DNA of 64,000 nt, from positions 153,630-217,629 of IMG/VR virus record IMGVR_UViG_3300001525_000584, one strand, 5' to 3'. This DNA is from a virus. Lineage: Duplodnaviria; Caudoviricetes. Positions 38,289 through 60,096 of this stretch are shown in pieces; within the stretch, counting starts at the first letter, position 1; each line of letters starts with the position of its first letter. A program made the position numbers and the translations under genes. Below the pieces are notes generated by a model, which searched no databases, was not told where the DNA came from, and worked only from the letters and a program-made list of their open reading frames with translations.

Positions 38289-38807
38289 TTAAACTATATA
38301 ACGTTGCAGATTATTCACAGGATCTTTTCTAAAAGCATCTGTTATATTAATCAGGTTATCCCCAACTCTTTTAAACATGACCTGATTAGAAAAAGGAAAA
38401 TTCAGAGGACCACAACTCTTTTTATGCCAGGTTGTTTGATCTCCTTCTGGTTTTCTCCAGCCACCTATTTTATAATAATCTAATACAGAAGCTAATTTTA
38501 AATCTAAGAAGTCTCTGCCTGAATACATACCAACTTTTAAATTATAAGTATTCTGAACAAACTTAGTTAAGTGATAAATGGTTTCATGATCATTATCACC
38601 GCCCATAAATCCTACTAAAGTTATACCTTCATTCTCTTTAATTAGTTTATGTAAAACTTCTGTGGTTAATTCTGTTCCTATGTCCTGAGCCAGATAAGAC
38701 TGAGAACACCCAGGACATTTATTAGGACAGTTAGATATATTTAAACACAAAGAGATCTCATCCGGGAACTCTGCAAATGTTACACTAGATTCTACTATTT
38801 TAATCAT
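38289..38807 (-). CDS. nrdG: anaerobic ribonucleotide reductase activase
   Basis: CPNKCPGC radical-SAM motif, EFPDEISL, MGGD; adjacent to nrdD. Confidence 0.9.
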   Translation of the reverse strand: MIKIVESSVTFAEFPDEISLCLNISNCPNKCPGCSQSYLAQDIGTELTTEVLHKLIKENEGITLVGFMGGDNDHETIYHLTKFVQNTYNLKVGMYSGRDFLDLKLASVLDYYKIGGWRKPEGDQTTWHKKSCGPLNFPFSNQVMFKRVGDNLINITDAFRKDPVNNLQRYIV

Positions 38808-39837
38808 TGAATTTTTCTGACTTTGTATCTGCATAGTATCTTCTGCGTGCTTCTATTTGCCGGGCTTCAGTAAAGTTAGAGACCCTCTTGATGTACCCCA
38901 CGATGCGCGTAATCCAATCTATATTATCCGTACCGCACACAGGGCATTCTTTTAAATATCTTTTATCGATATGACCACACTCGTTACAACACGTATTAGG
39001 GATATTAAAAGTAAAATAAGAACAGCCTTCTTTTGCTGCAACATCTAACAGTGCTCTATACTGAGCCTGACTTAGATGTGCATCGAGATTTGCATGCAGC
39101 GCACTGCCGCCATCGAGATTTTTAATGAATTTATCGCCGTGTAGTTTAATCTTATCTAATACGCTGTATGTTGGATCTTCAACAGGATAAAAATAAGAAT
39201 TATATAGGTTTCTATTTTTAGGTACCCAGTAACCATCTTTTTTATCCCAGTTATATAGCTTGGTGGAGCAATTTTCCCCCGGGACCATTTCTGAATTATA
39301 TTTAATGCCTTCAGTACGATCCTCTATATTAATCTGTTTGATCTTTGATAAAATATTATCAACAAAAGTTGCATATTCTTCGTTATTAGCTTTAGGTTCG
39401 ATCTTTAGATATTCAGCAGCTTCGAGTAAACCATTTAATCCTACAGTTAAGTACTGATCTTCTAATGCGATATATCCTGCAGAATAAACAGTTAATATGC
39501 CTGCTTCATAAAGTTCTTTTAACCAACCGTTCCATGCTAAAAGATATTTATGAACTCTTCTAACGATGTTTCCGATATAATCTTCTAAAGGTTGTTGTCT
39601 GCCTGCACGATCCCAGTCCTGCGTGATTCTATTTAAGTTGAGCGTAATAACTTTTTTAGAACCTGTTCTTAAGCCTCCAGCACCTAAAGTATAACTGAAT
39701 ACATTATTTTCTATGCCATTTTTTAATCTGCAATTATGTGTTAAAATGTTATTGGCAAAGAAAAAATGATTTTTGGATAATTCTATGTCGTACACTTTAC
39801 CACAGTCTTTTACTACTTTTATATTTTTAATTTTCAT
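38800..39837 (-). CDS. nrdD: split intein C-half (35 aa) plus NrdD C-terminal half
   Basis: VYDIEL...FFANNILTHN/CRL; glycyl-radical loop TRIVGY; two CxxC Zn motifs. Confidence 0.92.
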   Translation of the reverse strand: MKIKNIKVVKDCGKVYDIELSKNHFFFANNILTHNCRLKNGIENNVFSYTLGAGGLRTGSKKVITLNLNRITQDWDRAGRQQPLEDYIGNIVRRVHKYLLAWNGWLKELYEAGILTVYSAGYIALEDQYLTVGLNGLLEAAEYLKIEPKANNEEYATFVDNILSKIKQINIEDRTEGIKYNSEMVPGENCSTKLYNWDKKDGYWVPKNRNLYNSYFYPVEDPTYSVLDKIKLHGDKFIKNLDGGSALHANLDAHLSQAQYRALLDVAAKEGCSYFTFNIPNTCCNECGHIDKRYLKECPVCGTDNIDWITRIVGYIKRVSNFTEARQIEARRRYYADTKSEKFND

Positions 39838-41080
39838 ATAAAGTTTCCGCCTCCATGTCCTTGCGGACTTCTAATTCTTTATAATCTATATTTTTATGAT
39901 TTTTATATTCAGGAGTTATATTATGCAATATGCGGCTACGCCGATTCGCAGGCATTAAGCATGATATATGCATTTTGTCTTCAAGCAGCTGTTGCCTACA
40001 AAAATCATAAAGCACCTCGTCTGGTACTTCTTTTATATGCAGATAAAGACATAAACCTTTATAATCGGTTATGCGTAACTGTTTGTGCTGTACCGCCAGG
40101 CTCTTTTTTAGGTTTGTATACTTCTCTACATCTACTTGCTTTTTGTTTGCCTTTATTTCGAAAAGTTCTTGTGGATTTTGATCCAATATAAAATCCGGAA
40201 TATAACTGGCTTTAGCGCCTTCAAATAATTTTACAACTTCAGGCTCATACAAAAACCCTATATTATTTATATACAAAGTGTATGCAACTTTAAATTCTGT
40301 AAAGCTTCTAAAATGCTTATGCACCCCTAGGGTATCGCAGCGTATATGCAATCCTCGAGGACCTAAAAAGTTATTATCCGCGCGTGTCCAATATTTTGCC
40401 TGCGCGTAGCTGATTTTCTGGCGTACCTCAGCACTTTTTGAAGGATTATTTTCTCCGGCAACTCTTTTGGATATTTGCATTTTATTTGCATAGCCTGCCT
40501 CTGATGCATAAAAAAGTTTTTTACTCTGGGCTACTTTTTTATTGTGGGCCTCTGAGTGTACGGCCTTTAATGTTACATCCCAGCCAAACTCTGTACAATA
40601 ATTCTCCCACGCATATTTATGACTGCGAGTCACGTGATCTTTTAAATTACTGTAAAATTTGGAGCAAATTTGACACTTAAGTATTTTTGGATTTATTACT
40701 CGTGGCGCCTTTGCGCCGGATGTTTTTTGCTGCCTGCATCTTTTAAGTGTTATGGGGATTTTTGGAAACATCTGCCTGAATGTTGTTGATGAATATCCAT
40801 GCACATCTTTTATATGACGATACAGCGTATGCGAATACACCTTATTGCATAAGGGGCATGTGATATGGTCAGCAAGCCGCGCTTGCTCGTAAATCTTTAA
40901 TAGATCCTGGTACTCTTTTTCTATATCCCTGTGTGCCTGACTAATATGTTGTTGTAAGGACTGCTCCTGAAAAGTTTTCCTGTATCGCTGACCGCAAAGG
41001 GGACATACTGGAGCCCCCTCATGCTTTTCTGTATCAAATTTTCTGTATAATAGTTGGTACTCCTGTTGCGTCGTTAACAT
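39827..41080 (-). CDS. free-standing putative homing endonuclease (C2H2 zinc fingers, NUMOD3-like, PD-(D/E)xK domain)
   Basis: Three CxxC...HxxxxH fingers; YEP...YIPDF...FEIKA nuclease motif. Confidence 0.75.
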   Translation of the reverse strand: MLTTQQEYQLLYRKFDTEKHEGAPVCPLCGQRYRKTFQEQSLQQHISQAHRDIEKEYQDLLKIYEQARLADHITCPLCNKVYSHTLYRHIKDVHGYSSTTFRQMFPKIPITLKRCRQQKTSGAKAPRVINPKILKCQICSKFYSNLKDHVTRSHKYAWENYCTEFGWDVTLKAVHSEAHNKKVAQSKKLFYASEAGYANKMQISKRVAGENNPSKSAEVRQKISYAQAKYWTRADNNFLGPRGLHIRCDTLGVHKHFRSFTEFKVAYTLYINNIGFLYEPEVVKLFEGAKASYIPDFILDQNPQELFEIKANKKQVDVEKYTNLKKSLAVQHKQLRITDYKGLCLYLHIKEVPDEVLYDFCRQQLLEDKMHISCLMPANRRSRILHNITPEYKNHKNIDYKELEVRKDMEAETLYEN

Positions 41081-41231
41081 TATTAACCCCTTCTTTAAAA
41101 TATTGGGTGATAATGTAACGAATTTCCGCTGTTATGTTTCGGCACTCTTTTTGTGCCGCTTCACAAACGCGTAAATATAATGATTCGGGCAATGCTATTG
41201 TTTTAATAATAATCTTCTCTTTTTCAGCCAT
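41034..41231 (-). CDS. ribbon-helix-helix (Arc/CopG-like) DNA-binding protein
   Basis: KTIALPESLYLRVCEAAQKECRNITAEIRYII pattern; GAGGTG SD. Confidence 0.75.
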   Translation of the reverse strand: MAEKEKIIIKTIALPESLYLRVCEAAQKECRNITAEIRYIITQYFKEGVNNVNDATGVPTIIQKI

Positions 41232-41246
41232 TTTATCACCTCAGTT

Positions 41247-41254
41247 AATTTAGC
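41247..41254 (-). promoter_or_regulatory. GCTAAATT promoter inside nrdD cassette
   Basis: Motif 15 nt upstream of RHH start. Confidence 0.65.
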
Positions 41255-41260
41255 ATTGAT

Positions 41261-41290
41261 TTTTAATTATTTTCAATTATTTTTAATTAA
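41261..41290. repeat. 3x 10-bp tandem repeat (TTTTAATTAT/TTTCAATTAT/TTTTAATTAA), candidate RHH operator
   Basis: Read directly; spans nrdD-N stop, next to promoter. Confidence 0.5.
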
Positions 41291-42562
41291 CTCGTAACGC
41301 GAAGGATCCTGCAGTAATTCTTTGGCAGTTTTTTCTATGCGAAGACCTGTAGATACATCTAATACTAAAAATATATGCTCGGGGGTAACTGTTAAAAGAG
41401 TTCCATCTTCTGCTTCGATTTCGATCATATTAGGATGCTCATTATTCTTAATAAGGGTTCCTGTGATGTCAGCATATTCAAAAATATCCTTTTCTACATT
41501 ATAAGATACTATAGAATAATTCGAATAATCCTGATCATGCAGCACACAAAAATCTTTAATGCTCATGGTTTCATACATGCCTGTATCTTTATGCTTTACT
41601 GTGATGAGTTCTGAGCCTTCAAAGCAGCAGCTACTGAGTGAATCCGCCGAGCTTGAATTATAAACAAAAAAAGAATGGCCCTTAGACCACATATAACTGC
41701 ACCAGTCAGCCATATCTGAATCTACAAACTGTTTATTTTCATCATAAAGAAGATTTGCGGTTTCCACAGGAAAAGTTAATACAGCTTTTGTACGTTCCTG
41801 ATTAAACCACTCCATGAACATCTTCTGAAGAGCTTTAGTGGATTCATAATTGGGTTCATCACCGTCTGGGAAAACAAAATCTTTGAAAATAGCTTCGAAG
41901 TATCCCTTATCAAAATATGCGATATTTGTAAAAGGACTTTGATAACCTCTAGCACCGGCAGGTTGATTAATACAGTAAACAAACTGCTGGAAAAGATTTT
42001 CAATACGGTTTCTTAAAGTGCCTTTTCTGTTTCCAAAAGATTCGATAACATCATCCAAATGTTCTGTATAATCTTCACCATAGTCAACTCTTAAAAAGTG
42101 ATCTAAATAAGGTAAAGTTTCCGGTACCGCTACAGCTCCAGCAAACTGCCCCGCAATTAGGAAAACTAGGTTAACAAGACCTCCGATAAAAGCTTCGGCA
42201 TGTTTCGGAGCACCTGATGTACCACCCAGAGGCTTTAATCCATCCAGAAGATAAGGATATAATGATACAGCAACACAGTAGGGATAAATAGAAGTCTCGT
42301 CATGGCTATAAATACGATGTTTCTTTAGATCCTCTTCAAACATAGGGATTAAATCTTCTTCACCCATTTTCGCGAGATATTCTTTTACTATAGCTCTATT
42401 TAGTTCGATCATATCTCTTTTCGGGATCTCTGCACACATAGTAGCAACATTCTTAGACGTTACATTTGCGTTGCTATCTACTTCACTGCCTGTTGCAGCA
42501 TTAGAGGCAGCTATATAATTTCGAATAAATTTTAGTTTTGCTTCTACGCTCTCTTTACTCAT
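41273..42562 (-). CDS. nrdD: NrdD N-terminal half plus split intein N-half
   Basis: VDSNANV, IYSHDE, PYCVAV, TFPVET, SLSSC/CFEG intein junction. Confidence 0.92.
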   Translation of the reverse strand: MSKESVEAKLKFIRNYIAASNAATGSEVDSNANVTSKNVATMCAEIPKRDMIELNRAIVKEYLAKMGEEDLIPMFEEDLKKHRIYSHDETSIYPYCVAVSLYPYLLDGLKPLGGTSGAPKHAEAFIGGLVNLVFLIAGQFAGAVAVPETLPYLDHFLRVDYGEDYTEHLDDVIESFGNRKGTLRNRIENLFQQFVYCINQPAGARGYQSPFTNIAYFDKGYFEAIFKDFVFPDGDEPNYESTKALQKMFMEWFNQERTKAVLTFPVETANLLYDENKQFVDSDMADWCSYMWSKGHSFFVYNSSSADSLSSCCFEGSELITVKHKDTGMYETMSIKDFCVLHDQDYSNYSIVSYNVEKDIFEYADITGTLIKNNEHPNMIEIEAEDGTLLTVTPEHIFLVLDVSTGLRIEKTAKELLQDPSRYELIKNN

Positions 42563-42577
42563 AACTATGGTATCTCC

Positions 42578-42781
42578 TTAGGTTGCTGACTTTATATAAT
42601 CGATCAGAGCTTTGCCCTGAATTATTTGCCCATTTACATTTGCCGCAGGCGTATGATTCACACCTACTTTTTTCATCTCTTCTATATCCTGACATTCGGT
42701 ATACTGTATATTTTTCTTCTTATCCAGAAGCATATGAATCATTCGGCACTGTGGACAGTTCTGTTGTGTATAAAGTATCAT
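42578..42781 (-). CDS. glutaredoxin / NrdH-like redoxin
   Basis: LYT...CPQC; TP motif. Confidence 0.8.
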   Translation of the reverse strand: MILYTQQNCPQCRMIHMLLDKKKNIQYTECQDIEEMKKVGVNHTPAANVNGQIIQGKALIDYIKSAT

Positions 42782-42876
42782 ACCCTCAAAATCCTTTCTT
42801 TTTCTACATTATTATACAATTTTAGATATGTATAGGCCCTGCTTAATCTACAGAGCCTATAACTTTTTTGGTGGTT

Positions 42877-42884
42877 AATTTAGC
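42877..42884 (-). promoter_or_regulatory. GCTAAATT motif upstream of redoxin/nrdD
   Basis: Recurrent motif; ATTGTATA also present at 42813-42820. Confidence 0.5.
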
Positions 42885-42920
42885 CACATTTAAAAATTCA
42901 GGATCCGGGGTAAAATGCTC

Positions 42921-44603
42921 TTATAAATCTTCTATATAAGACTTTAAAAGATTTACAGTAGATTCTTCTATTTTATCATCTACTAAATAATCTCCCATAG
43001 CCTGTTTCAAATTTACGATCTCTGCTACACGTTCATCTACAGTGTTTGCACATATTAATCTATATATAAACGCCGCACCTTTATTATCTACTCTATGTAT
43101 GCGATCGAATACCTGCTGACATTCAGCCGCAGTCCAGGGCGTATCCAAACAAATCATATAAGTTGCAGCATTTAAAGTCAAACCTGTACCAGATTTTTGC
43201 GTGGTACCCAACCAAACTTTATATTTAGGATCAGTTTGAAACAACTCTTTATTCTTTTCGAAAGTACCATCATCTACATCGCCTGTACCCAGTAAAGGAT
43301 AGTACTGTTTTAAAGATTCGTTTAAAATCCTTAAAGGTTCTTTTATAGTAGACATGATAACCACTTTGTTACCATTTTCTATAATCTCTTCAGCTAATTC
43401 TATAGCGCGTTCTATTTTACTAGCTTTTATAGGTTCGGATGTTAATAAAGAAGGACATGTTGCAGCCTGAATTAATCTAATAGTCATGGCTAAAACATTT
43501 TCTTTATTTAAATCTATTTTATCACACTGTTCTTTGACACCATCTTTTACATTTTCATAGAACTGTTTGTGATCGTCATTCATCTCTACAAGTTCATCTA
43601 CTACAAATTTAGGCGGCAAACCTTCTATAATATCTTTTGTGCGTCTCAAAGAACATGTATCTAATTCTTCTTTTAGCAGCTTTAAATTTTTATACCCTAT
43701 AACCTGATGGCCACCAAAACCACCATAAATACAGTATAAAGCTTTAAAATTAGTTAAATTAGATTTTTCCACTCCAATCCATTTTAATGGTACATAGGCA
43801 TCTAAAGGCTTTGACTGAATTAATGTCCCGGTCAAACCTAATCGATGTTTTGACTGAGTTAATTTTAATAGTCCAGCAGCCTGCGCAGCTTGAGAGCCTT
43901 TACATTTGTGGCATTCGTCCAGGACAACCATATCTATATTATTTTTACTAGTTTTGATCGCCTGTATAATCTCTGCTGAACGTAAGCACTCTACATTAAT
44001 TATATAGAAAAAAGCATCTAAAGGATTATGTAACTCTACTGCACGTTCTTTAGTATTTGCATAATAGATTTTTCCACTTTTACTGACTTTTTTCCCTATA
44101 ATTCTACAGGATAAATTAGAATGCTTTTTGATCTCAGCCTCCCAGTTACCCTTTAATGAATTAATGCCACATATAATTAAACAGTGTTCTAATCCCTTTT
44201 GCTCTTTTAATTCTTCTGCCAGATGTATTATAGAAGCTGTTTTACCTAATCCTGGAGCATCTAATAATAAACCGCAGTCCTGATTTAAACCCCATTCTAT
44301 AGCTTCTAACTGATGTTTAAAAGGAGGTATTTTATAAGTATCGACCAGCTTAGGATAAAAATGAACTTTGTCAGAGTCTTCTGTTTTTAATGTTAATGTG
44401 ATATCATCTAAATAAGTTAATTCATTTAAAAGATACGCCAGAGAAGTAACAGGCAGTTCCCATCCATGCGTATTTTTGTCATAAAAATACTTTTCAGAAC
44501 TTTGCTTTAAAACATTAACAACATTTATATTAAAATCAAAAGAGATATGTAAAGAGGTTAATCCTGAACATTTTATCGAGGGCTTTTCTTCTATTCTAAT
44601 CAT
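42921..44603 (-). CDS. SNF2-family helicase
   Basis: DAPGLGKT, LDECH, LTGT, GTGLTL, DRIHR motifs. Confidence 0.9.
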   Translation of the reverse strand: MIRIEEKPSIKCSGLTSLHISFDFNINVVNVLKQSSEKYFYDKNTHGWELPVTSLAYLLNELTYLDDITLTLKTEDSDKVHFYPKLVDTYKIPPFKHQLEAIEWGLNQDCGLLLDAPGLGKTASIIHLAEELKEQKGLEHCLIICGINSLKGNWEAEIKKHSNLSCRIIGKKVSKSGKIYYANTKERAVELHNPLDAFFYIINVECLRSAEIIQAIKTSKNNIDMVVLDECHKCKGSQAAQAAGLLKLTQSKHRLGLTGTLIQSKPLDAYVPLKWIGVEKSNLTNFKALYCIYGGFGGHQVIGYKNLKLLKEELDTCSLRRTKDIIEGLPPKFVVDELVEMNDDHKQFYENVKDGVKEQCDKIDLNKENVLAMTIRLIQAATCPSLLTSEPIKASKIERAIELAEEIIENGNKVVIMSTIKEPLRILNESLKQYYPLLGTGDVDDGTFEKNKELFQTDPKYKVWLGTTQKSGTGLTLNAATYMICLDTPWTAAECQQVFDRIHRVDNKGAAFIYRLICANTVDERVAEIVNLKQAMGDYLVDDKIEESTVNLLKSYIEDL

Positions 44604-44869: not shown

Positions 44870-44882
44870 TTATTTACTCTCC

Positions 44883-45629: not shown

Positions 45630-45652
45630 AAGCTGTATCTCCTTTTATATTT

Positions 45653-46777: not shown

Positions 46778-46792
46778 CTATTTTTCCTCCTA

Positions 46793-49901: not shown

Positions 49902-51512
49902 TTAATCTACATACTCCCAGGTATAACCCCCGAGCATTTTATTTTTTCTACGGCCCGTGCAAATTCTACCCAGGGTATTTTTATTTATATTAAAGTGTGC
50001 TGCAGCATCCTTCTGAGAAGGAAAAATAATATTCAGCTCAATACATCTAACTCTCTTTTGATTTTTTAGAGTTGCTGGACGCTCTTCTAGACGCGGTTTG
50101 CCCACAAAAGCTTTCAACGCCTGTATCATTTCTTGATCTTTTATACGCGCCCAATGATATCCTCCTCCATAACCTCCTTTATGAGCTGCTGCGCTTATAC
50201 AACTCGCATTCATATGCAGTTGCTCCGCTGCTTCTGATGCAGAATTAAAAATTTGCTGCGTCTCTATGCATATAACCTGACTTAACTGTTTCTCTATCCG
50301 ATTCTGCTGAGCCTTTAAAGAGGCTTTTTTTGCAGAGGACAATGCGCATCTGGGTTTTCCTATAAAACTTTTTAAAGATTCTTGTTTCAAAGTATCATGC
50401 AAGAAAGCCCAGTGATAACCATCACAGGTTTCTACACGGCCAGTTAATGCACTACTAAGAGCTCCTGCAGACAGAGGAGGATTATGTGTCTGGCAGGCTT
50501 CTTTCGCAGATTTATAAACTCGCTGCGTTTCTATACATATTATGCTTTTACTACTACGATCACTCAGCGCTTTTCTATATTCTTCTGAATATACTCGACC
50601 TACAGCGGCTTTTTTCCGAGACTCTGATAGTCTTTTGCTGCGCTCTTCTTTAGATTCGGGGGGCTTTCCTACAAAATCTTGTAGTTGCTTTTGTAACTCC
50701 GCATCATCTAAATAGGCAAAATGATAACCCCTGAATCTCTCACCATCATAGAGGACATGTTGCAAACTGTTTTCAAGACAGTTCAAAGTCTGTGCACATT
50801 GTTTTATCGATGCAAAAGTTTGTTGTGTTTCTATGCAAATAATAGGGCGGGCGCGCAGCTCTTTTTGTAAATAAGGTGGTTTACCTATAAAAAAAGCTAA
50901 GGCCTTTATTTTCTCCGTATCACTACTATATGCAAAATGATACCCACGAGCCGTGGCCTTATAATTCAATAAAACTTCTCTTTGGAGTTTAGTACCAATA
51001 AAATGAGAAGCTTCTTTAACAGAATTAAAAACTTGCTGAGTTTCTATGCATATAACACTTTTAAATTCGCATGCCTTTGCTTGCTCATACATTTTTTGAT
51101 AGTTTTCCAGGCCGTTTTCCTTTATAAGTTGCTCTATCTGCTCTAAAGATCTTTTTTGTTTATTATTAGGGTCTCCACGAAGCTGCTTATCTAAGGCATT
51201 AAATAATCCTGGGAACAATACGTCTAAACAGCATCGGCATAAATAATAATGAACTTTGATATGGTCCTGAAAATATAAATTAATTTTAAAATTTTTTGGG
51301 TCGCCGTTAGCCTGTGCTAATGCTTCTTTTCTGGGTACTTCATAGGCCTTTTTATAATAACATACAGGTATAACATGATGGCGCTGTGTTCTACCGGGCT
51401 GATTTGCTAAGCCCTCATTAAGAGCTATGCAGGCGCAATATTTATCTAAAAATTCATTATCAATAAAATAATTCGTATCTAATAGAGTCTCTTTTATTGT
51501 AGAAGCTTCCAT
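49902..51512 (-). CDS. free-standing HNH homing endonuclease with 5 NUMOD1-like repeats
   Basis: RHHVIP...INL...DHIKVH; five (I/R)CIE repeats. Confidence 0.78.
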   Translation of the reverse strand: MEASTIKETLLDTNYFIDNEFLDKYCACIALNEGLANQPGRTQRHHVIPVCYYKKAYEVPRKEALAQANGDPKNFKINLYFQDHIKVHYYLCRCCLDVLFPGLFNALDKQLRGDPNNKQKRSLEQIEQLIKENGLENYQKMYEQAKACEFKSVICIETQQVFNSVKEASHFIGTKLQREVLLNYKATARGYHFAYSSDTEKIKALAFFIGKPPYLQKELRARPIICIETQQTFASIKQCAQTLNCLENSLQHVLYDGERFRGYHFAYLDDAELQKQLQDFVGKPPESKEERSKRLSESRKKAAVGRVYSEEYRKALSDRSSKSIICIETQRVYKSAKEACQTHNPPLSAGALSSALTGRVETCDGYHWAFLHDTLKQESLKSFIGKPRCALSSAKKASLKAQQNRIEKQLSQVICIETQQIFNSASEAAEQLHMNASCISAAAHKGGYGGGYHWARIKDQEMIQALKAFVGKPRLEERPATLKNQKRVRCIELNIIFPSQKDAAAHFNINKNTLGRICTGRRKNKMLGGYTWEYVD

Positions 51513-51547: not shown

Positions 51548-51555
51548 AATTTAGC
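51548..51555 (-). promoter_or_regulatory. GCTAAATT promoter upstream of HNH gene
   Basis: Recurrent motif. Confidence 0.6.
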
Positions 51556-51598
51556 TATAATAACCGTGGGCTACACTCTTAAATCCGTACAAACATCA

Positions 51599-53200
51599 TT
51601 AAACATCCTTCTGATTAAAATCATAGAAGATTTTATGTGTTTGAATTTGTGCTCGTAAATTTGCTTCAGGATGCTCCTGAATAAACTCAGGTATTCTATG
51701 CATAGTTACATTATTAAAACAAGGACTTATATAAATAGGGGCTCTACTCTTTAATGTTATTAATCGCTCTAATTCAGCCCAGTCTCGAGGATCATCAGTC
51801 ATAACTACTTTAATAAGGTCAGAGCCTGATAAAATCTTTAAATTACTCTCCAGCATTTTTGAAGTCATATTACTTGCGGGCATTTTCCAATCCATTGCTA
51901 AATAAACGCCGCAGCGATGTCCTGTGATATCCTGATTATATGCATCTCCGAAGGCTTCTTTATAAGGTTCATAGTCTATAGTGCCGTTTGTCTCTATATC
52001 TACACTATATAAAGCCTTTACGAATAGAGGTATTAATTCTTTAATCATAAAAGTTTCATTTTCAGGCATTAGAGGTTCCCCGCCGGTTAGACATATGGAT
52101 TTTTGAGGCCAGTCTTTTTCTATAGATTCAACTTCATTAAAAATCTCCGCCGCAGTATACCACTTAACGGCATTTTCCAAAGTACCTCGCTCTGGATATA
52201 ACTGTAGAAGTTTCTCGAGTGTCCAACTTTCACGGGTATCACAATTATGTACTAAAATATTACTGCCTACGAGGCTGCTTTTTACATAATAGCTATGTGC
52301 ATCTGTTTCTATATTTATAACAGTGCTACCAAATCTTTTATTTGTTCTACGACGATGATTAGCAGTCACTTCAATTAACGTCTCATCATGCCTCTTACTA
52401 AAATTATTACCTCGTGCGTGCAGCTGATCATGAAGCTTCTTTGGGATCACCACTAAGTTATTTAAATCATCGTTATGGGGGTTTTTATCTATATGGTGCA
52501 CCACCAAATTTTTAGTTCCCCAAACCTCCGCAAAGGGATAATTCGTATGATCCATCTCTTGCAGACCATTTTTAGCATATGTAAAGTTCCGCGCGTCAAA
52601 GGCTTCTTTATACATGCCGTTTTTGGAATTAAAGTTATTACGATCCTGATGATTATTTACATATGTATCAACGGCAGCTTTAGTATAGTTTACCAGTTCA
52701 TCTCTATAGAGTTTCTCGACTAGATATCTTACTAATGTTGCATTAGTGGTTCTCTTTACATAATCACCTATGTTTATATCTTTGATGGCTTGCCAGCCCT
52801 TTGCTGTATAAAAAGGATGCTCACTAGTTACATTAAAATTATCTCGCAAAGTTTTGCCCAGAGATACTTTACGTATACTTGGAGGATCTACATCTCTTTT
52901 TAGAACATTCGTTACAGTAGTTACGTAGGGTTCATTATTTTCCGGGTTCAACGTCATGATTCGATCACCCACCCTGACATCAGACATGTTAAGAAGTTGC
53001 CCGTATGCATCCACCACATAAGGATAATGACCACTTTGATCAGGAGCAAAACACCACGGGCAGCGAGCATTACAGTACATAGTACGTACAAAAACGGTCT
53101 TAAAATTTTGTTCAGGGCCTTCACCTTGCACGGCTCTGAAAATATTAATCAGAGCAATTTCATGAGCCTGTTTTTCAACATTATACCGAATCATTCTCAA
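51599..53200 (-). CDS. queE: 7-carboxy-7-deazaguanine synthase, intein-containing
   Basis: IFRAVQGEG, FVR, CNARCPW|C, LTGGEP, IETNG, QTHK. Confidence 0.9.
   Translation of the reverse strand: MRMIRYNVEKQAHEIALINIFRAVQGEGPEQNFKTVFVRTMYCNARCPWCFAPDQSGHYPYVVDAYGQLLNMSDVRVGDRIMTLNPENNEPYVTTVTNVLKRDVDPPSIRKVSLGKTLRDNFNVTSEHPFYTAKGWQAIKDINIGDYVKRTTNATLVRYLVEKLYRDELVNYTKAAVDTYVNNHQDRNNFNSKNGMYKEAFDARNFTYAKNGLQEMDHTNYPFAEVWGTKNLVVHHIDKNPHNDDLNNLVVIPKKLHDQLHARGNNFSKRHDETLIEVTANHRRRTNKRFGSTVINIETDAHSYYVKSSLVGSNILVHNCDTRESWTLEKLLQLYPERGTLENAVKWYTAAEIFNEVESIEKDWPQKSICLTGGEPLMPENETFMIKELIPLFVKALYSVDIETNGTIDYEPYKEAFGDAYNQDITGHRCGVYLAMDWKMPASNMTSKMLESNLKILSGSDLIKVVMTDDPRDWAELERLITLKSRAPIYISPCFNNVTMHRIPEFIQEHPEANLRAQIQTHKIFYDFNQKDV
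52244..53053 (-). mobile_element. 270-aa intein with HNH endonuclease in QueE
   Basis: Starts CFAP; block B VTSEHPF; HHIDKN..N..NNL....H...H; ends ILVHN/C. Confidence 0.88.
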
Positions 53201-53697: not shown

Positions 53698-53715
53698 ATT
53701 AAACCCCTTTTCCTA

Positions 53716-54534
53716 TTAATCCAAATACTTCTGATAATAAGGATTTTGAATAAATTTTGTATAGAGCTCGTTATTAGTTTCTCTAAGGACTTCGAGAGCT
53801 TTTTTAGTTGCCGCAGCTACGTCGAGGCAAGTTGCGCAGTTTAAGCACTCCTCTGCTTCACCATTTTCATCGATAATAGGATCATAGCAACTGAAACACA
53901 TCTCATAAGGTACAGGCTTTTTCAGTTCCATACCACATTTAATAAGTTCCCATTTATGATTCTTTACAAAGGGTGCTTCATAATGTACATGTCCAACGGA
54001 GCTGATTCTTACGACTTCTTCGAAGGCTTTAGTGAATAGGGGCGAGCAATCGGGGTAACACGATTTGGTTTCATCCTGATGTTCCACACCATTTTCATCT
54101 ACATAATAGCACGAATCATCTGCGTGCTGACCGAGCATAATAGTTACATCATCATTAAACTGCTGCGAAATGCTTTCTGCACGAGCTGCTACATATGCAG
54201 AGAAAAGACCATTTCTAAAAGGTACATAGGTATCAACTTTGCCTTCTTTTTCGGCAAGAATTTCAGCATAGGTTTTTCCCTTCTGAATTTCTTTAGTAGA
54301 GCCCTTCAACATAGTACATGTAGAACCCTTAAAGATGGCTGGATCAATAGTAACAATCTGATAAGGAACACCATAATAGTCTGCAATCTTCTGGGCACTT
54401 TTCAGTTCCTGTGGATGAGTACTGCCATACTCAAAACCCATAGCATAAACATTTTCAGCGCCATAACGATCAACAGCCAGACCTAGACATGTTGCACTAT
54501 CTCTGCCACCACTTAAACTAACGATACACTTCAT
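53716..54534 (-). CDS. queC: 7-cyano-7-deazaguanine synthase
   Basis: SGGRDS, YVPFRN, YPDC, SCY...C..C..C motifs. Confidence 0.93.
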   Translation of the reverse strand: MKCIVSLSGGRDSATCLGLAVDRYGAENVYAMGFEYGSTHPQELKSAQKIADYYGVPYQIVTIDPAIFKGSTCTMLKGSTKEIQKGKTYAEILAEKEGKVDTYVPFRNGLFSAYVAARAESISQQFNDDVTIMLGQHADDSCYYVDENGVEHQDETKSCYPDCSPLFTKAFEEVVRISSVGHVHYEAPFVKNHKWELIKCGMELKKPVPYEMCFSCYDPIIDENGEAEECLNCATCLDVAAATKKALEVLRETNNELYTKFIQNPYYQKYLD

Positions 54535-54597
54535 TTTAAAATTCTCCTTTTATAGTTTGCTTATTTATAGTCGCGATTAATAAGGACACACGACTCA
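54535..54597 (-). ncRNA. candidate pseudoknot riboswitch leader, copy A (queC)
   Basis: AGUCGUG-UGUCCUUAUUAAU-CGCGACU, tail AAAUAAGCAAACUA, SD AAGGAG. Confidence 0.6.
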
Positions 54598-54605
54598 TAA
54601 TTATA

Positions 54606-54613
54606 TATACAAT
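54606..54613 (-). promoter_or_regulatory. ATTGTATA motif, putative early/middle promoter
   Basis: Recurrent intergenic motif; 10 nt upstream of the leader stem. Confidence 0.55.
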
Positions 54614-54616
54614 AGA

Positions 54617-54865
54617 TCATTTTAATTTTTTATGATCCCTGTATTCTTTAATTAACCAAAATATATTTAATAGTAGCCCGCAGACATTTGTAACCCCTGT
54701 TGCATAAGCATTGGTGCATACAAATCCATATATAATGAAAAGTAAACTGCCTAAAGCATTAATCGTTCTCATTAACATGGTACCTTTATATGTGGTGGTT
54801 TTGAATGTCATAGAGGCTACTATAAATATAGAGGATAATATACCTATTATCTCTTTAATAGGCAT
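54617..54865 (-). CDS. small membrane protein (YgjV-like, 3 TM)
   Basis: IIGILSSIFIVASM...MRTINALGSLLFIIYG. Confidence 0.6.
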   Translation of the reverse strand: MPIKEIIGILSSIFIVASMTFKTTTYKGTMLMRTINALGSLLFIIYGFVCTNAYATGVTNVCGLLLNIFWLIKEYRDHKKLK

Positions 54866-55408
54866 TTAAGGTTCCTTCACATTAAGAATCTTTTTCATAG
54901 CCTTCAGCCGTTCATCTACAGTACCTGTTAATCTGACTACTGTGATGCTAAAGTCTTTGATAAGTTCTTCGAAAATCTGTACGATCTCATCTCTGAATTT
55001 ATCGTCTGTACTACGTGTACCATCCGGGATAATATCGAATTCGGGTGACAAATAAAAGATAACATCATACTTCATAATATAATCCAAGAAATTTTTATAA
55101 ACGATATGATACGTGTTTCTCGAGATCTTATGATGTCTCCACATCCAAATAGTATAAGCCATGCAGTCCAAAACACAACGATCCACTAAAACATCGCCTT
55201 TAAGCTCTGCATTAGTCATGTGTTCCTGAAGAATAGCTCTTTGTGTTTCATCTGTACCTGCTTCATTAATCTTAAAGCCTTTTTTCTGTAGCGTTCTTAC
55301 GATCTCATCTACAAAGGTAAATTTACCGCAAAAAGTTTTATCATTTTTAAGAGCATTAAGCAAAGTAGTTTTTCCTGTGCACTGAGCCCCTGATAAAGCA
55401 ACAAGCAT
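54866..55408 (-). CDS. P-loop nucleotide kinase (NadR/AAA_28-like)
   Basis: GAQCTGKTT, DRCVLD, YDVIFY, DGTR. Confidence 0.78.
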   Translation of the reverse strand: MLVALSGAQCTGKTTLLNALKNDKTFCGKFTFVDEIVRTLQKKGFKINEAGTDETQRAILQEHMTNAELKGDVLVDRCVLDCMAYTIWMWRHHKISRNTYHIVYKNFLDYIMKYDVIFYLSPEFDIIPDGTRSTDDKFRDEIVQIFEELIKDFSITVVRLTGTVDERLKAMKKILNVKEP

Positions 55409-55466
55409 AAATTCTATAAACCTCTTTTCTCAAACATTTTTACATTTATGATATACAATTTCACAT

Positions 55467-55474
55467 GCTAAATT
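55467..55474 (+). promoter_or_regulatory. GCTAAATT promoter, back-to-back with - strand ATTGTATA at 55452-55459
   Basis: Recurrent motifs at a divergent junction. Confidence 0.6.
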
Positions 55475-55536
55475 AAACATAAATAAAGGGTGCTATAAAA
55501 GATTTACATTAAAAAAATTATTAAGGAGTTTTATAT

Positions 55537-55854
55537 ATGAGTAAAGGTCTTACTTTACAAGAGGCTCTTCAAGAGCTTAGAGTCACTAAAAAAGTTGATA
55601 AAAAAGCTCTTAAAGAAGATTTAAATGTTGCAGAGACTGATAATATGGAGGAAACCATCACTGAGCTTCTATTAGATAATGGTGATCGTGTTTCTGTTAA
55701 TCCCTGCGCACTTTTTGCAAACATGATCGCTAATAACTATGAGCGCATGAGCGCAGATGTAAACGAGCTCGAGGCAGTTGTTAACAGATATCTTGAAGCT
55801 GAGGGCACAGATCTTCGGGTTGTTTTCATGCCTGCTAGCGAATATGAAGACTAA
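55537..55854 (+). CDS. hypothetical acidic protein (lone + strand gene)
   Basis: AAGGAG SD, own promoter motif and terminator. Confidence 0.7.
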   Translation: MSKGLTLQEALQELRVTKKVDKKALKEDLNVAETDNMEETITELLLDNGDRVSVNPCALFANMIANNYERMSADVNELEAVVNRYLEAEGTDLRVVFMPASEYED

Positions 55855-55866
55855 TTAAAGTACAAT

Positions 55867-55901
55867 TAAAAGGACCTTAAAAATTAAGGTCCTTTATTTT
55901 T
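55867..55901. terminator. bidirectional terminator
   Basis: AAAGGACCTTAA...TTAAGGTCCTTT. Confidence 0.75.
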
Positions 55902-56915
55902 TTACCCATTTAAAGCTTCTAATTCTTCTTCTGTCATCTCTTCTATATTATCATCTTCATAAGCTTCAGGAGGTAAAATATCAGAAGCATCACCCAGATT
56001 TTTAATTATATCATAAATCTCTGATTCAAGCATCTCAGCATGTCCCTGCACCAATTTTTCATAAGCTTCTCTATTAGATAAGCCTTTGCCCACGCACTTT
56101 TTATATTCTTCTTCGAGGGCATTTTGCTGCTCGTCTTCGTACCATCTTTTAACTACGTACGCGTCGCAGGACATGGGACAATTTATATACTTCGCTGCTG
56201 TATCGATCATAATTCGGGGTAAAATCTCTGCAACAGCTTCTGCATTTTCTTCAGGGCACTGACCTATTAATTCATCATGTACTGTGATAAGCAACTCAAA
56301 GCCTAATTTATTTAACTCGGGATCATTATCAACATTTACCATAGCCATTTTAGTTAAAGTAGAAGAACCGCCCTGAATAATAGCATTCACTGACTGCCGC
56401 TCTGCCTGAGCTATAAAACCGCCATTATTATGAATTTCGATGCCTTCTTTTGCAGCCTCCATTTTAATTTTGTCAACTGCTTTTAAAGATTTACTCTCTT
56501 CTAATAGTTGCCTATATTTATTTAAGAGCTTATTTGAATTTTCATCTATTCTATCTGAACATCCTATAAAAGGATTAAAAGCCCCAGAACCCTGGTTAGG
56601 ATCTTTAAAATTTAATTCAAAACGAGGTAACTGAATGTCCGGTAAACGTCTTCTTCTGCCATACCAGTCTTCTACATATCCTGTGTTATGAGCTTTTTCA
56701 TGAGTGTCATCGATCCACTTTTTAACTACAGGATAAGCTTTAAAGAAACGATCTACGATGTCCTGAGCTTCAGCGACTGTTTTCTTTGTTTGTTCGGCAA
56801 TAGATGCCACGCCACGACCATAGAGCAAGCCGATCAAAACGGCCTTGGCTGATTGCCTTCTTGCTTTACCCTCTTTATTTAAAAGTTGTGGGGGCGATTT
56901 AATAGTAAATTGCAT
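55902..56915 (-). CDS. polA: DNA polymerase A, C-terminal fragment
   Basis: Motif B RQSAKAVLIGLLYG, AERQSVNAIIQG, motif C VHDE. Confidence 0.92.
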   Translation of the reverse strand: MQFTIKSPPQLLNKEGKARRQSAKAVLIGLLYGRGVASIAEQTKKTVAEAQDIVDRFFKAYPVVKKWIDDTHEKAHNTGYVEDWYGRRRRLPDIQLPRFELNFKDPNQGSGAFNPFIGCSDRIDENSNKLLNKYRQLLEESKSLKAVDKIKMEAAKEGIEIHNNGGFIAQAERQSVNAIIQGGSSTLTKMAMVNVDNDPELNKLGFELLITVHDELIGQCPEENAEAVAEILPRIMIDTAAKYINCPMSCDAYVVKRWYEDEQQNALEEEYKKCVGKGLSNREAYEKLVQGHAEMLESEIYDIIKNLGDASDILPPEAYEDDNIEEMTEEELEALNG

Positions 56916-57945
56916 TTTCCTTCCTACTTTTCAAATATTTACTTAACAATCTATTAAAATAACGTGGACTTAAATCATAATGTATGCAGGCTGCCTCTAA
57001 CCCATGGGCGGAATAATACAGATAAAGAGGAGTAAAATCCTGGTTTGCAATATTCCTGACTTTGCGTACATTATAACGTCGGGCGAGTTCTTCGACGCGC
57101 GTTTGACTAATGTTAAAATATATCGTCGTCTCACCTATGGTATGTCCTTTATAATACGCTATAAAGATTTCTGGAGCTATATCTGAGGAGTTATAATCAC
57201 CGCGTTTGGCATGCCTGTATTTATTTTTATACAATTTGTGTTTTTTTACATAATTCCGCACATAGGAGCCGCTGACATCAAAATGCTCTGCCGTTTCTTT
57301 TATGGTATGCCGCTGCACTAGATAATAATCAGTAAAAGCACTTAAGGACATTTCCACGCTTGCATTTAGATGTCTTCTTATATTTTTAAAGCATTTAAAT
57401 TTATGAGCAAAATTCCTTACGCAGCTTTTTGATATATAAAAGTGCCTTGCCGTCTCGGTATTGCTATGCGTCGAATAATATCCTATAAAAGTCTCTGCGT
57501 CTAAGGTTAATTGCAGGTTGTCATAATATGTTGTAAGTTGTTCAAAAGTTTCTCGGCACAAATCGGAAATTTTATAATGAGAAGTATCTGCTTTTTTACA
57601 GATATTCAGCATGCATTGCACAGCCCTTTGCATAGATTTTCTAAAAGGTCCTTGAGCACATTTATAAAGATAATAATGCGCGCATACATGATCCCCATAA
57701 GTCAAATTTATCAAATGCTCCCGGGCTTCAGGTTCCTGTAAGAGCCTAGACAGACTTCTCGGAATTATGTGATGACATTCCACATACCCTGGATGATTAT
57801 AGCCAGATGCTTCTTTTAATAAATTTAAATAATCCTGCAGTGCTTCGTTATCTGCTATATACTGCGTATTTAGCAATATTTTTTTAATATTTTCAAGATA
57901 GCTTTGTGTGTATTCATGATTAGTTATTTTTGGATTGGTGGGCAT
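56899..57945 (-). CDS. HNH homing endonuclease with repeated HTH-like units
   Basis: ECHHIIPRS...INL...DHVCAH; repeated YY..H...ET..HF.IS units. Confidence 0.75.
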   Translation of the reverse strand: MPTNPKITNHEYTQSYLENIKKILLNTQYIADNEALQDYLNLLKEASGYNHPGYVECHHIIPRSLSRLLQEPEAREHLINLTYGDHVCAHYYLYKCAQGPFRKSMQRAVQCMLNICKKADTSHYKISDLCRETFEQLTTYYDNLQLTLDAETFIGYYSTHSNTETARHFYISKSCVRNFAHKFKCFKNIRRHLNASVEMSLSAFTDYYLVQRHTIKETAEHFDVSGSYVRNYVKKHKLYKNKYRHAKRGDYNSSDIAPEIFIAYYKGHTIGETTIYFNISQTRVEELARRYNVRKVRNIANQDFTPLYLYYSAHGLEAACIHYDLSPRYFNRLLSKYLKSRKENAIYY

Positions 57946-58084
57946 TAAAATAGTTGTTTAATATTTGCCTAACTACCTCAGATACGCTTAAATCACTTTT
58001 GAAAGCTTCTTCTCGAAGTTGCCTACGTAAATTTATCGAAATCTCTAAGGTCAAGATACATTTTTTTATTTTATCTTTTTGCAA
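57920..58084 (-). CDS. ribbon-helix-helix (CopG/Arc-like) protein, 54 aa, missing from ORF track
   Basis: GAAGGGAG SD plus TTG; MQKDKIKKCILTLEISINLRRQLREEAFKSDLSVSEVVRQILNNYFNAHQSKNN. Confidence 0.75.
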   Translation of the reverse strand: MQKDKIKKCILTLEISINLRRQLREEAFKSDLSVSEVVRQILNNYFNAHQSKNN

Positions 58085-58103
58085 TATATTACTCCCTTCA
58101 TTT

Positions 58104-58111
58104 AATTTAGC
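58104..58111 (-). promoter_or_regulatory. GCTAAATT promoter inside polA cassette
   Basis: 19 nt upstream of RHH start. Confidence 0.65.
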
Positions 58112-58121
58112 ATTAAATAAG

Positions 58122-58145
58122 TTATTAAATTATTAAATTATTAAA
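58122..58145. repeat. 3x perfect 8-bp tandem repeat TTATTAAA, candidate RHH operator
   Basis: Read directly; spans polA-N stop, next to promoter. Confidence 0.5.
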
Positions 58146-60096
58146 AAGTAATAGTAGTTTGCTTTCCTACTGTACTTAGGCTTTTAATAATTTGAGGTGC
58201 ACCATCATCGGGTTGCAATGCATCACCTACGTGCAAATCTTTGGCCATAACCCAGTCAGCAGAAGTTCTAAGCATTTTATAATAAGGTACTGTAAAAGTC
58301 TGTCCAGACACTTGCATTGCTTCACTTTTGCCAGTGCCACATATTACGTTTCTTCCTTCAAAGGTTATTTCTGTACCCTCCTCATAAAATTCTCTATTGT
58401 CGCTATAATCATTATCATACATATTAGAAGCGACAACTGCATATAGATCTTTTCCATCTTTATATGCCTGAATCATATTTTGGTCCTGAGTCATAAATGC
58501 AGTCATGCGTACTTCTTGAGCACTGAAGTCAGAACCTACGAGCCGCATACCTTCAGGAGCTTTAAATTGCATTCTTAATTCTTTTTGCCCTGCCGGTATA
58601 TTTTGCATATTTACTGAGGATATTTCGCAGTTTCGTCCTTCATCATCCATATAACGCACTTTACCCCCGGAACTAAAACGTCCAGTTTTTGCACCATACT
58701 GCCTAAAATGCGTATGAACATGCCTATCAGGCCAGAAGTTAACTAATACTGGGATGTTATCTATATAAGTAGATAATAGCTTAACTAGGCCTCTTCGTTC
58801 TATAAGAAGGTTGCAAATAGGTAACTGCGTCTTTTCTGCTAAAGCTTCTAATGCATCTTCTCCGGTGGCCCTGGGTTGTTTTTTGTCTACTACAGGTGCT
58901 TTGAGAATATTATAAAGAAGAATAGCCAGCTGAACCGGAGAGCCTAAATTTATCTCTTCAGGCAACTGTTCTACTAAGGCTTTGCCTACTTTATATCTCA
59001 TGCCTTTTTCATCTACAAAAGGATACTGTGCTGCAATCTCGTCATCTTTTTTCTTTGATTTTTTAGGTGCATAAGCTCGAGATGCTTCATTCGCTTCTTT
59101 AGATAAACGCCAGGCATTAATCATGGGCTTTAGCTTCTCTAGCTCTTCTGCAATAGCTGCATCACAAACAGTTAACTTATTATTATATTTTTCACTAAGT
59201 CTTCTATTATATTCTTCGTCTACTGCAACGCCACGCATCTCCATTTTTGCAACAACAGGCATGACAGCCATCTCAACATCTCTAAAAACTCTATACAGTT
59301 TTACATTATCAGGCTTTGCAAATTCATTAACCTGCCATTCATATAATGCATCAGTCATTTTAGAGTCTGTTGCTGCATAAAAGGCAAATACATCAGGATC
59401 CACATCGGCATAATGAACACCTTCAAATAGATCATTAATTTTATACTTTTCCTGATCAGGATCTATTTTTGCTATATACTGTTCCTTTAGAGATGCAGGT
59501 TCATTTTCATTTAATACCTGAGCTGCTAACATAGTATCCCAAAACACGGGTAAATCTATGCCACATGTATAATGAATGACCTGATAATCGAAGTCTGCAT
59601 GATGCATAATAATATGTGTTCCTGCATCAACTATTCTCTGAAAAGCATCATGCATGTCCTGTTCGGTTAATTGATTAGGTAACTTTTCTTTTGTTTCAGG
59701 GTCTCTGTGATTAATAGGTATATATACCTGCTTTTCTCCAGGGGTATATAAACAGGGGCCCATTAATTTACATGTATGCGTATCTGTAGTATTATTAGTC
59801 TCAGTATCTATAGCGATTCGACCAACTTTAATAGCTTTAGAGATATAATCATTTAAAGTTTCTTTATCTCTAATGCACATAACGTTATCTGCCTGTTTAC
59901 CTAATACTCTGAGTACTTCAGCTTTAATCAAAATCATCTTTTCTTTTATAGAAACTTTTTTTGATTTAACCTGTTTTTCTATAGATGCCTCAGTAGTTTT
60001 AGGCTTAGATAACTTTTCTTTTATTTTTTTAGTTTTGACTTTTTCATCAGGGAGTTTAAAATCATCGCCCCAAAGACTCTCTTCAATCTCTGGCAT
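58141..60096 (-). CDS. polA: DNA polymerase A, N-terminal fragment (3'-5' exonuclease, motif A) with degenerate intein-like tail
   Basis: IAIDTET, DTMLAA, YAATD, TGRFSS, NMQNIP, SDFSAQE, DLY. Confidence 0.92.
   Translation of the reverse strand: MPEIEESLWGDDFKLPDEKVKTKKIKEKLSKPKTTEASIEKQVKSKKVSIKEKMILIKAEVLRVLGKQADNVMCIRDKETLNDYISKAIKVGRIAIDTETNNTTDTHTCKLMGPCLYTPGEKQVYIPINHRDPETKEKLPNQLTEQDMHDAFQRIVDAGTHIIMHHADFDYQVIHYTCGIDLPVFWDTMLAAQVLNENEPASLKEQYIAKIDPDQEKYKINDLFEGVHYADVDPDVFAFYAATDSKMTDALYEWQVNEFAKPDNVKLYRVFRDVEMAVMPVVAKMEMRGVAVDEEYNRRLSEKYNNKLTVCDAAIAEELEKLKPMINAWRLSKEANEASRAYAPKKSKKKDDEIAAQYPFVDEKGMRYKVGKALVEQLPEEINLGSPVQLAILLYNILKAPVVDKKQPRATGEDALEALAEKTQLPICNLLIERRGLVKLLSTYIDNIPVLVNFWPDRHVHTHFRQYGAKTGRFSSGGKVRYMDDEGRNCEISSVNMQNIPAGQKELRMQFKAPEGMRLVGSDFSAQEVRMTAFMTQDQNMIQAYKDGKDLYAVVASNMYDNDYSDNREFYEEGTEITFEGRNVICGTGKSEAMQVSGQTFTVPYYKMLRTSADWVMAKDLHVGDALQPDDGAPQIIKSLSTVGKQTTITF

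Follow-up and report, generated by a model that had tools for sequence, protein, structure and literature searches.

Two essential genes in the final 64 kb of the virus record IMGVR_UViG_3300001525_000584 (a single contig of 217,629 bp with direct terminal repeats), nrdD for anaerobic ribonucleotide reductase and polA for DNA polymerase, are each split on the minus strand by a cassette that carries a small gene for a ribbon-helix-helix (RHH) protein and a gene for a free-standing endonuclease. This 64-kb stretch, called the window below, belongs to a jumbo phage of about 36% G+C. The analysis follows up an earlier interpretation made without database searches, referred to here as the sequence-only reading.

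Two split genes with one cassette layout

The same order of parts was found at both loci: the N-terminal half of the host gene, a tandem repeat that contains its stop codon, the motif TGCTAAATT, an RHH gene, an endonuclease gene that overlaps the RHH gene, and a C-terminal half that overlaps the endonuclease gene. In each case the host gene is present as two adjacent, co-oriented open reading frames (ORFs) with a free-standing endonuclease ORF between them. The overlaps are 47 nt between RHH1 and HEG1 and 11 nt between HEG1 and the nrdD C-half, and 26 nt between RHH2 and HEG2 and 17 nt between HEG2 and the polA C-half. This common order had been described in the sequence-only reading, and each feature that it named was recovered on the minus strand where it had been placed.

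The nrdD N-half (41273-42562, minus strand) encodes 429 residues, matches Pfam NRDD over residues 57-313 (E = 2.9e-33) and ends in the N-part of a split intein. This part starts at the Cys that follows SLSSC (junction SSC/CFEGSEL) and matches Intein_splicing over residues 333-416 at 2.4e-4, below the Pfam cut-off. The C-half (38800-39837, minus strand; 345 residues; NRDD 2.9e-52) begins with a 35-residue intein C-part that ends in THN and is followed by Cys+1 (THN/CRL); it matches Intein_splicing over residues 2-35 at 3.9e-4, again below the cut-off. Both end features of a split intein, a Cys-started N-part and a His-Asn-ended C-part followed by Cys, are thus present at nrdD, and from these residues NrdD is predicted to be restored by trans-splicing.

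The polA N-half (58141-60096, minus strand; 651 residues) carries the exonuclease, the thumb and motif A, with matches to the Pfam exonuclease and DNA_pol_A families. When it is aligned with phiCTP1 PolA and with a related locus, L024, where the site is uninterrupted, its last ~60 residues (~58141-58340) prove not to be polymerase; they form a cassette-borne, Hint-like tail, with a PT-HINT match at only E = 0.0095. The C-half (55902-56915, minus strand; 337 residues; DNA_pol_A 8.7e-41) holds motifs B and C behind 11 cassette-derived leader codons, which include neither a His-Asn pair nor a nucleophile and so give no intein junction. PolA therefore probably works as two associated chains, like the NrdA of phage Aeh1. 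The earlier proposal that split inteins rejoin the halves accordingly fits nrdD and fails at polA, where there is no splice junction.

The N-half stop codons of both loci lie inside arrays reported by Tandem Repeats Finder (TRF), as the sequence-only reading had noted, and these are 2 of the 23 TRF arrays in the window. The nrdD array (41259-41289) has a score of 55, a period of 10, 3.1 copies and a 90% match, with a minus-strand unit of about AATTRAAAAT, and it takes in a -35-like TTGAAA as well as the stop. The polA array (58118-58145) has a score of 49, a period of 8, 3.5 copies and a 95% match, with the minus-strand unit TAATAATT. Both arrays are unique in the 217,629-bp genome at up to 1 mismatch, and a 20-mer of the nrdD array is unique at up to 3 mismatches, so each array appears to be a private target of its own cassette. 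We regard the arrays as candidate operators for RHH1 and RHH2, respectively.

Each array ends ~4-6 bases upstream of GCTAAATT (41247-41254 and 58104-58111). At nrdD, the longer motif TGCTAAATT (41247-41255, minus strand) resembles an extended -10 element, and a promoter scan of the cassette returned TTGAAA-18-TAAATT with TG ahead of the second hexamer. At polA, TGCTAAATT (58104-58112, minus strand) is likewise promoter-like. The two sites have the exact 12-mer ATGCTAAATTAA in common. Its sole further exact copy (55465-55476, plus strand) lies 5' of an acidic 105-residue ORF (55537-55854, plus strand), which is convergent with the polA C-half and shares with it a bidirectional terminator at 55869-55895. 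An ORF of 105 residues that matches it in place and orientation is found in L024; it has no family match.

The two nucleases have unrelated folds within this one layout, in agreement with the sequence-only reading. HEG1 (39827-41080, minus strand; 417 residues) is a free-standing, homing-type endonuclease with three to four C2H2/Ros-MucR zinc fingers and a C-terminal PD-(D/E)xK domain resembling T7 endonuclease I. The profile of its family matched T7 endonuclease I (1m0d) at 2.7e-6 and the structures 3cae, 1fzr and 2pfj at up to 5.6e-5, Pfam Phage_endo_I matched three family members, and E279, D296, E308 and K310, which make up the E...D...ExK catalytic pattern, are invariant in 24 family sequences. 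HEG2 (56899-57945, minus strand; 348 residues) is a free-standing HNH endonuclease with helix-turn-helix (HTH) repeats (PHROG HNH 2.1e-10, PHROG homing endonuclease 8.8e-10, Pfam HTH_28 1e-9, and HTH_23 repeats). Its motif ECHHIIPRS..N..GDH, together with these DNA-binding modules, has the features expected of an HNH homing endonuclease. The HNH domain resembles those of a polA nuclease in the related genome G001 and of a third endonuclease gene of the window, HEG3.

Two other readings of the cassettes were discarded. A group I intron around the nucleases is rejected, as no Rfam family reached threshold in the window and the N-half frames extend to the repeats, which leaves no space for an intron core. 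A programmed frameshift that joins the RHH protein to the nuclease is rejected from the reading frames, the nuclease being in frame +1 relative to the RHH gene in the window, L001 and L009 but in frame +2 in L005.

The two small proteins are RHH proteins

RHH1 (41034-41231, minus strand) is a protein of 65 residues with an RHH core at residues ~6-48 and a C-terminal tail overprinted on the start of HEG1. RHH2 (57920-58084, minus strand) has 54 residues and a TTG start with GGGAG upstream. An AlphaFold2 model of RHH1, built with five relatives, has an extended N-terminus and helices at 16-28 and 33-48, with a predicted local distance difference test score (pLDDT) of 80-89 in the core. Nearly all of its best 38 Foldseek matches in the Protein Data Bank (PDB) are RHH proteins (Arc, AmrZ, CopG, ORF56, ParG, NikA, MatP, ParD, TacA and PutA). 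The template modelling (TM) scores, normalised to the target, are mostly ~0.5-0.8, with root-mean-square deviations mostly of 2-3 A and probabilities of up to 0.99; for Arc they are 0.63-0.79 depending on the chain, and for CopG 0.77-0.81. The sequence profile of RHH1 matched AvtR and FitA best in the PDB.

RHH2 aligned to the RHH1 family in hhalign with a probability of 86% (E = 4.6e-6, 45 columns). It matched PHROG regulator and Arc-like families at 2.3e-5 and 1.3e-4 and Pfam RHH_1 at a sub-threshold 0.018, and all ESM Atlas clusters listed for it were RHH or RHH-antitoxin families, with scores of 0.92-0.93. Both proteins are thus RHH proteins, RHH1 by model and profile, with an Arc/AmrZ/CopG-like structure, and RHH2 by profile and language-model evidence. 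This bears out the fold that had been assigned to the two small ORFs.

The RHH1 sequence is under purifying selection. Compared with its counterpart in L001 over the 50 non-overlapping codons, dS was 0.27 and dN 0.034 (dN/dS 0.13); compared with G001, the proteins are 54% identical and dS is saturated. The tail of RHH1 (11-18 residues) is unconserved, with a pLDDT below 50, and RHH2 ends ~6 residues past helix 2. The N-terminus of the nuclease, on the other hand, is conserved with or without an overlapping RHH gene, which indicates that the RHH tail is overprinted and probably without function. Tails that are short, poorly conserved, of low pLDDT and overprinted on a conserved nuclease N-terminus favour a pure DNA binder.

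The polA insertion and its boundaries

The polA genes compared were those of the window (55902-60096), L024 (L024:2584-6948) and G001 (L015:4181-8348). In this phage clade polA is broken at three sites: before motif A in L024 and G001, between motifs A and B in the window (site 2), and inside motif B in L024 and G001. Site 2 is uninterrupted in L024, with 89% identical flanking DNA, and a single ORF there connects the residues directly behind motif A with motif B by way of ICGHKTHLNKEGKARR. Comparison with this empty allele maps the polA cassette of the window to ~56884-58405, a span that takes in ~60 codons at the end of the N-half and 11 at the start of the C-half, and reveals a presence/absence polymorphism that supports mobility.

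The polA nucleases of L024 and G001 are not accompanied by RHH genes. In L024 the break before motif A holds a 358-residue HNH gene; in G001 the break before motif A holds a 53-residue ORF, and the break inside motif B holds an HNH gene with in-frame TAG codons, directly behind GCTAAATT. The 53-residue ORF (L015:6634-6795, minus strand) directly follows the first polA fragment and looks, by eye only, like an excisionase/MerR-type HTH protein; if so, a further split site would have a small gene for a DNA-binding protein. In the short middle polA piece of L024, the motif A residues upstream of its ATG seem to be missing. Upstream polA fragments that end at different split sites have a similar tail of ~60 residues, W..KD[LI]..GD.[LI] ... 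K[LT].[LIF] (58141-58340; L024:4129-4317; L015:6795-7001). The tail resembles part of a Hint fold without the splicing residues; it seems to move together with the nuclease cassettes and may aid the association of the fragments.

Recurrence among related loci

The HEG1 family comprised 96 representatives at E <= 0.001. The genomic context was read for ten members, and all ten are flanked by nrdD halves or nrdD-like sequence, in which intein parts can mostly be recognised. In these contexts the family was found only at the nrdD split-intein site, and it matched no described family; it looks like a homing nuclease family dedicated to that site. One member, P0018, was called as a fusion with the nrdD C-half.

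Besides the window, the complete unit of an RHH gene, an equal overlap, GCTAAATT and three 10-bp repeats in the same register was found at nrdD in L001, in G001 (L009) and in L005-7. The nucleases of these loci are 87%, 36% and 34% identical to HEG1, respectively (about 34-39% among the divergent ones), and the RHH proteins of the divergent units are 35-54% identical to RHH1, that of L005-7 having 55 residues. The pairing of an RHH gene with an endonuclease at a split gene therefore recurs, as had been predicted. The RHH gene is absent from L003/4, L008, L010/11, L012, L018/19, L020 and L021, where the nuclease starts 3-83 nt past the N-half and the motif is missing. The four nucleases with an RHH gene group together in a maximum-likelihood tree (support 100/100), in a clade that also holds the RHH-free L003 as sister to L005 (97/96). 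The simplest history is thus one gain and one loss.

The other searches returned little. Among deposited phages there was no close relative of the phage, and Megablast of both cassette loci against 50,697 phage records gave 0 matches. A tblastn search of phages with HEG1, RHH1 and RHH2 yielded nothing useful, the sole exception being a match of RHH2 to AvtR at E = 0.1. No related locus was found in viral contigs with HEG1, RHH2 or HEG2, and two metagenome scans and one genome scan recovered 0 relatives; with a narrowed HEG1 alignment as the query, G001 was the only find. A word-index search gave no close relative of HEG2, whose phage matches were limited to HTH repeats of Bacillus phage proteins, with no RHH gene in those neighbourhoods.

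The promoter motif and the timing of expression

The sequence-only reading had credited the RHH gene with its own promoter and had called the cassette promoter late. The motif is not restricted to the cassettes, and its late timing is unproven. GCTAAATT has 34 copies in the genome, nearly all intergenic and typically placed after a T-run and TG, which gives them an extended -10 look; ~20 have a called gene start 24-88 nt downstream, as judged from crude gene calls. Copies also stand 5' of the thioredoxin-nrdD operon (42884), of HEG3 (51555) and of genes in G001, L001, L005 and L003. With about 30 genes behind it, the motif is the general promoter element of this phage clade and not one private to the cassettes; the copies outside the cassettes have no comparable repeats. 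The motif also stands before large plus-strand genes that are probably structural; PHROG annotation put no names to these, and late expression stays an assumption.

An indirect hint of late expression comes from G001 (IMG/VR, 214,257 bp), which appears to read TAG as sense in a subset of its genes. Its HEG1 homologue (L009:4149-5438, ending in TAA) has 11 in-frame TAG codons, one of them opposite a Gln of the window protein, and its polA HNH gene (L015:5170-6066) contains 8, against 0 in the adjoining pieces of nrdD and polA. Two tRNAs with a CUA anticodon were found in G001 and none in the genome of the window. The TAG-rich genes of G001 otherwise cluster in a block of large genes (~119-200 kb). 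Further TAG islands in G001 cover a reverse transcriptase, BspA-like leucine-rich repeat proteins and a RecU-like gene.

A model of autorepression and its alternatives

The reading that we favour, at slightly better than an even chance, is that nrdD and polA were invaded by two independent homing-endonuclease cassettes, each headed by private repeats, an extended -10 promoter and an Arc/CopG-like RHH autorepressor. The predicted events are as follows. RHH dimers would occupy about three repeats, one per helical turn for RHH1 and in 8-bp units for RHH2. The occupied repeats would cover the cassette promoter from about -15 to -45, where at nrdD a repeat supplies the -35-like TTGAAA, and binding would repress the promoter, giving negative autoregulation. 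The nuclease would be translated only through coupling to the RHH frame: the genes overlap, the HEG1 start codon is paired in a hairpin (-16.8 kcal/mol, z -2.6), and HEG2 lacks its own Shine-Dalgarno sequence. Such coupling would keep nuclease output low and tied to that of the repressor. The nuclease would then cut cassette-free alleles in co-infecting relatives, and repair would copy the entire cassette into them, while NrdD would be rebuilt by trans-splicing and PolA would act as two associated chains. A further form of control, a leader hairpin hiding the ribosome-binding site of the RHH gene as in mobE, was not supported at these leaders (z -0.04 to -1.6).

Several observations weigh against this scheme. 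There is no terminator between the N-half and the RHH gene at either locus, so transcription that starts at the upstream nrdD and polA promoters would run on into the nuclease gene, and repression of the internal promoter alone may not silence it. The AT-rich repeats could instead serve as a UP-like element. The hairpin at the HEG1 start is kept only in part in L001. The AlphaFold2 model of RHH2, made from a single sequence, is a helical hairpin and not beta-alpha-alpha, although we judge this model to be uninformative, and the RHH2 cassette, for which no relative turned up anywhere, stands alone. Finally, the RHH gene can be dispensed with: it is missing from most cassettes of the HEG1 family and accompanies neither HEG3 nor the polA nucleases of relatives, so it is not the defining part of an element class that the sequence-only reading had made of it.

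Of the alternatives, the one that stands up best is that the RHH proteins are positive or biphasic controllers in the manner of restriction-modification C proteins, a low level activating the promoter to give a delayed burst of nuclease and a high level repressing it. The layout would suit such a role, with repeats at the promoter and a single transcript on which a small gene for a DNA-binding protein overlaps the nuclease gene; three repeats would permit graded occupancy, and the polA cassette, which has no -35-like hexamer, may need an activator. C proteins, however, are HTH proteins (Xre-like, with C-boxes) and the fold here is RHH, which makes the likeness functional and architectural only. 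RHH proteins of the Arc/CopG/Mnt type and of this size are overwhelmingly repressors, and the other GCTAAATT promoters of the genome work without such a protein or repeats. We consider this explanation unlikely.

It is less probable again that the RHH proteins are accessory DNA-binding factors for homing or for the host gene. They might mark the occupied allele or protect it, or act mainly on the amount of the nrdD and polA C-halves, which in this account share the internal promoter. In favour of this, both C-halves overlap the nuclease stop and lie downstream of the cassette promoter, and the repeats take in the last codons of the N-halves. Against it, the repeats are absent from the empty allele (site 2 of L024), and cassettes that lack an RHH gene still express their C-halves.

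An antitoxin-like inhibitor of the nuclease, acting by protein contact as well as by autoregulation as in type II toxin-antitoxin systems, would require a C-terminal toxin-binding segment, and neither the ~6 residues of RHH2 past helix 2 nor the unconserved, low-pLDDT tail of RHH1 provides one. Related nucleases also do without any RHH protein. The order of RHH gene and nuclease gene, their overlap and the operator repeats at the promoter do correspond to RHH-type toxin-antitoxin pairs, and the Foldseek and profile matches include ParD, TacA, CopA and FitA, with HicB-type antitoxins among the ESM Atlas neighbours of RHH2; even so, we hold this possibility to be quite improbable.

The least probable account is that the small ORFs are hitch-hiking phage regulators that adjoin the nucleases by chance and shared descent, for although RHH genes are common in phages, the RHH-HEG1 pairs all fall in one clade that could reflect one event and the RHH2 pairing was seen once, two unrelated nucleases in one genome have the same head and overlapping arrangement, the unit is kept across deep divergence (dS saturated), the polA RHH gene lies strictly inside the inserted DNA, and neither repeat array occurs at any promoter but its own.

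Autoregulation by the RHH proteins, which we infer from this architecture, would extend to a broader proposal: the head of repeat operator, promoter and RHH gene may be a portable platform that recombines onto unrelated homing nucleases, here a zinc-finger/endonuclease I-like one and an HNH one. This we offer tentatively, at somewhat less than an even chance.

Other mobile elements in the region

The 36-64 kb part of the window consists of minus-strand genes for replication, nucleotide metabolism and 7-deazaguanine synthesis, and selfish elements are dense there: an intein in DnaB, an intein in QueE, HEG3 and the two cassettes. The DnaB-like helicase (62097-63896, minus strand) contains an intein (Hom_end_hint 2.4e-17), as does that of L024. 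QueE, a radical SAM protein (51599-53200, minus strand), contains an intein with an HNH domain; in L001 and L024 QueE is intein-free, at 224-261 residues. HEG3 (49902-51512, minus strand), a free-standing HNH/NUMOD endonuclease gene between folE and queE with GCTAAATT directly 5' of it, has no RHH gene. It is missing from L001 and L024 and is therefore a recent insertion.

Discussion

Proteins that limit or time the expression of a nuclease at its promoter, as is proposed here, have well-known counterparts. The C proteins of restriction-modification systems are small HTH proteins that act on operators at the nuclease promoter, and the C gene often overlaps the R gene; the homing endonuclease I-TevI itself binds an operator at its own promoter and so represses itself. 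The cassettes differ from both, since C proteins are HTH proteins and I-TevI needs no separate regulator. In fold and size RHH1 and RHH2 are similar to Arc and Mnt of P22 and to plasmid CopG and omega. In this superfamily obligate dimers place paired strands in the major groove of repeated operator sites, and short tandem or inverted promoter repeats are the usual binding targets, but there is no significant sequence identity to these proteins, and the target repeats and the regulated genes are others.

The closest known arrangement is that of fractured genes with split inteins and free-standing endonucleases, in which a late-promoter element lies upstream of the nuclease (Dassa 2009, PMC2677866). 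The nrdD locus has exactly that layout, with the nuclease ORF overlapping the start of the C-half. The differences are that a regulator gene acting in trans is absent from PMC2677866, which describes late promoters and RNA hairpins, that nrdD is not among its hosts (0 mentions), that its nucleases are Vsr-like and others but not zinc-finger/T7 endonuclease I-like, and that our polA locus has no functional intein junction. The halves of nrdA of Aeh1, split by the HNH gene mobE, and of the split gp43 genes of T4-like phages work without splicing (Friedrich/Gibb/Edgell; Crona et al., PMC3045599; PMC2677866). In those systems, as here, an essential gene of replication or nucleotide metabolism is cut by a free-standing HNH gene; nuclease expression is held down in them by promoter and translational controls, and similar restraint is predicted for our cassettes. 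The control of mobE is by a cis-acting RNA hairpin that contains the late promoter, whereas the cassettes carry DNA repeats and a separate RHH gene, and their leaders form no significant hairpin.

The sequence-only reading did not recognise the element as described. This is right of the regulator gene with respect to PMC2677866, but a precedent exists: RHH proteins named Arc bind and repress the promoters of IS605 nucleases and transposases, and Arc genes also adjoin homing endonucleases (Moon, Zedaveinyte, Wiegand, Sternberg; bioRxiv 10.64898/2026.09.24.754181). In both cases a tiny RHH gene lies inside a selfish element and is tied to the promoter of the element's own nuclease, with repression predicted in ours. 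IS605-family transposons reside in bacterial chromosomes and carry TnpA and TnpB, often with the genes in divergent order, unlike the co-oriented, overlapping phage cassettes in split essential genes, and the two are likened here by architecture. The cassettes thus add a component to an established type of fractured gene and are not a wholly new element; the added part is recurrent, but neither obligatory nor unprecedented.

The loci also have practical returns. They provide a compact natural NrdD split intein, two candidate orthogonal repressor-operator pairs, and two candidate site-specific nucleases whose empty targets are now identifiable (for polA, site 2 from L024). With breaks at three places across the clade, polA is a natural system for studying how essential enzymes tolerate fragmentation.

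A homing endonuclease must be expressed enough to spread and too little to harm the genome that carries it. Among the known solutions, late promoters and RNA hairpins act in cis, and I-TevI serves as its own regulator. If our reading is true, the cassettes would show a third way, a dedicated repressor that acts in trans on a private operator and moves with the element. This would parallel the Arc proteins of IS605 and would suggest a general rule in which small RHH proteins are governors of selfish nucleases. If the head is indeed portable, the cassettes would belong to a widespread class, not yet formalised, of homing elements that repress themselves, and this repression would govern both the invasion and the upkeep of split essential genes.

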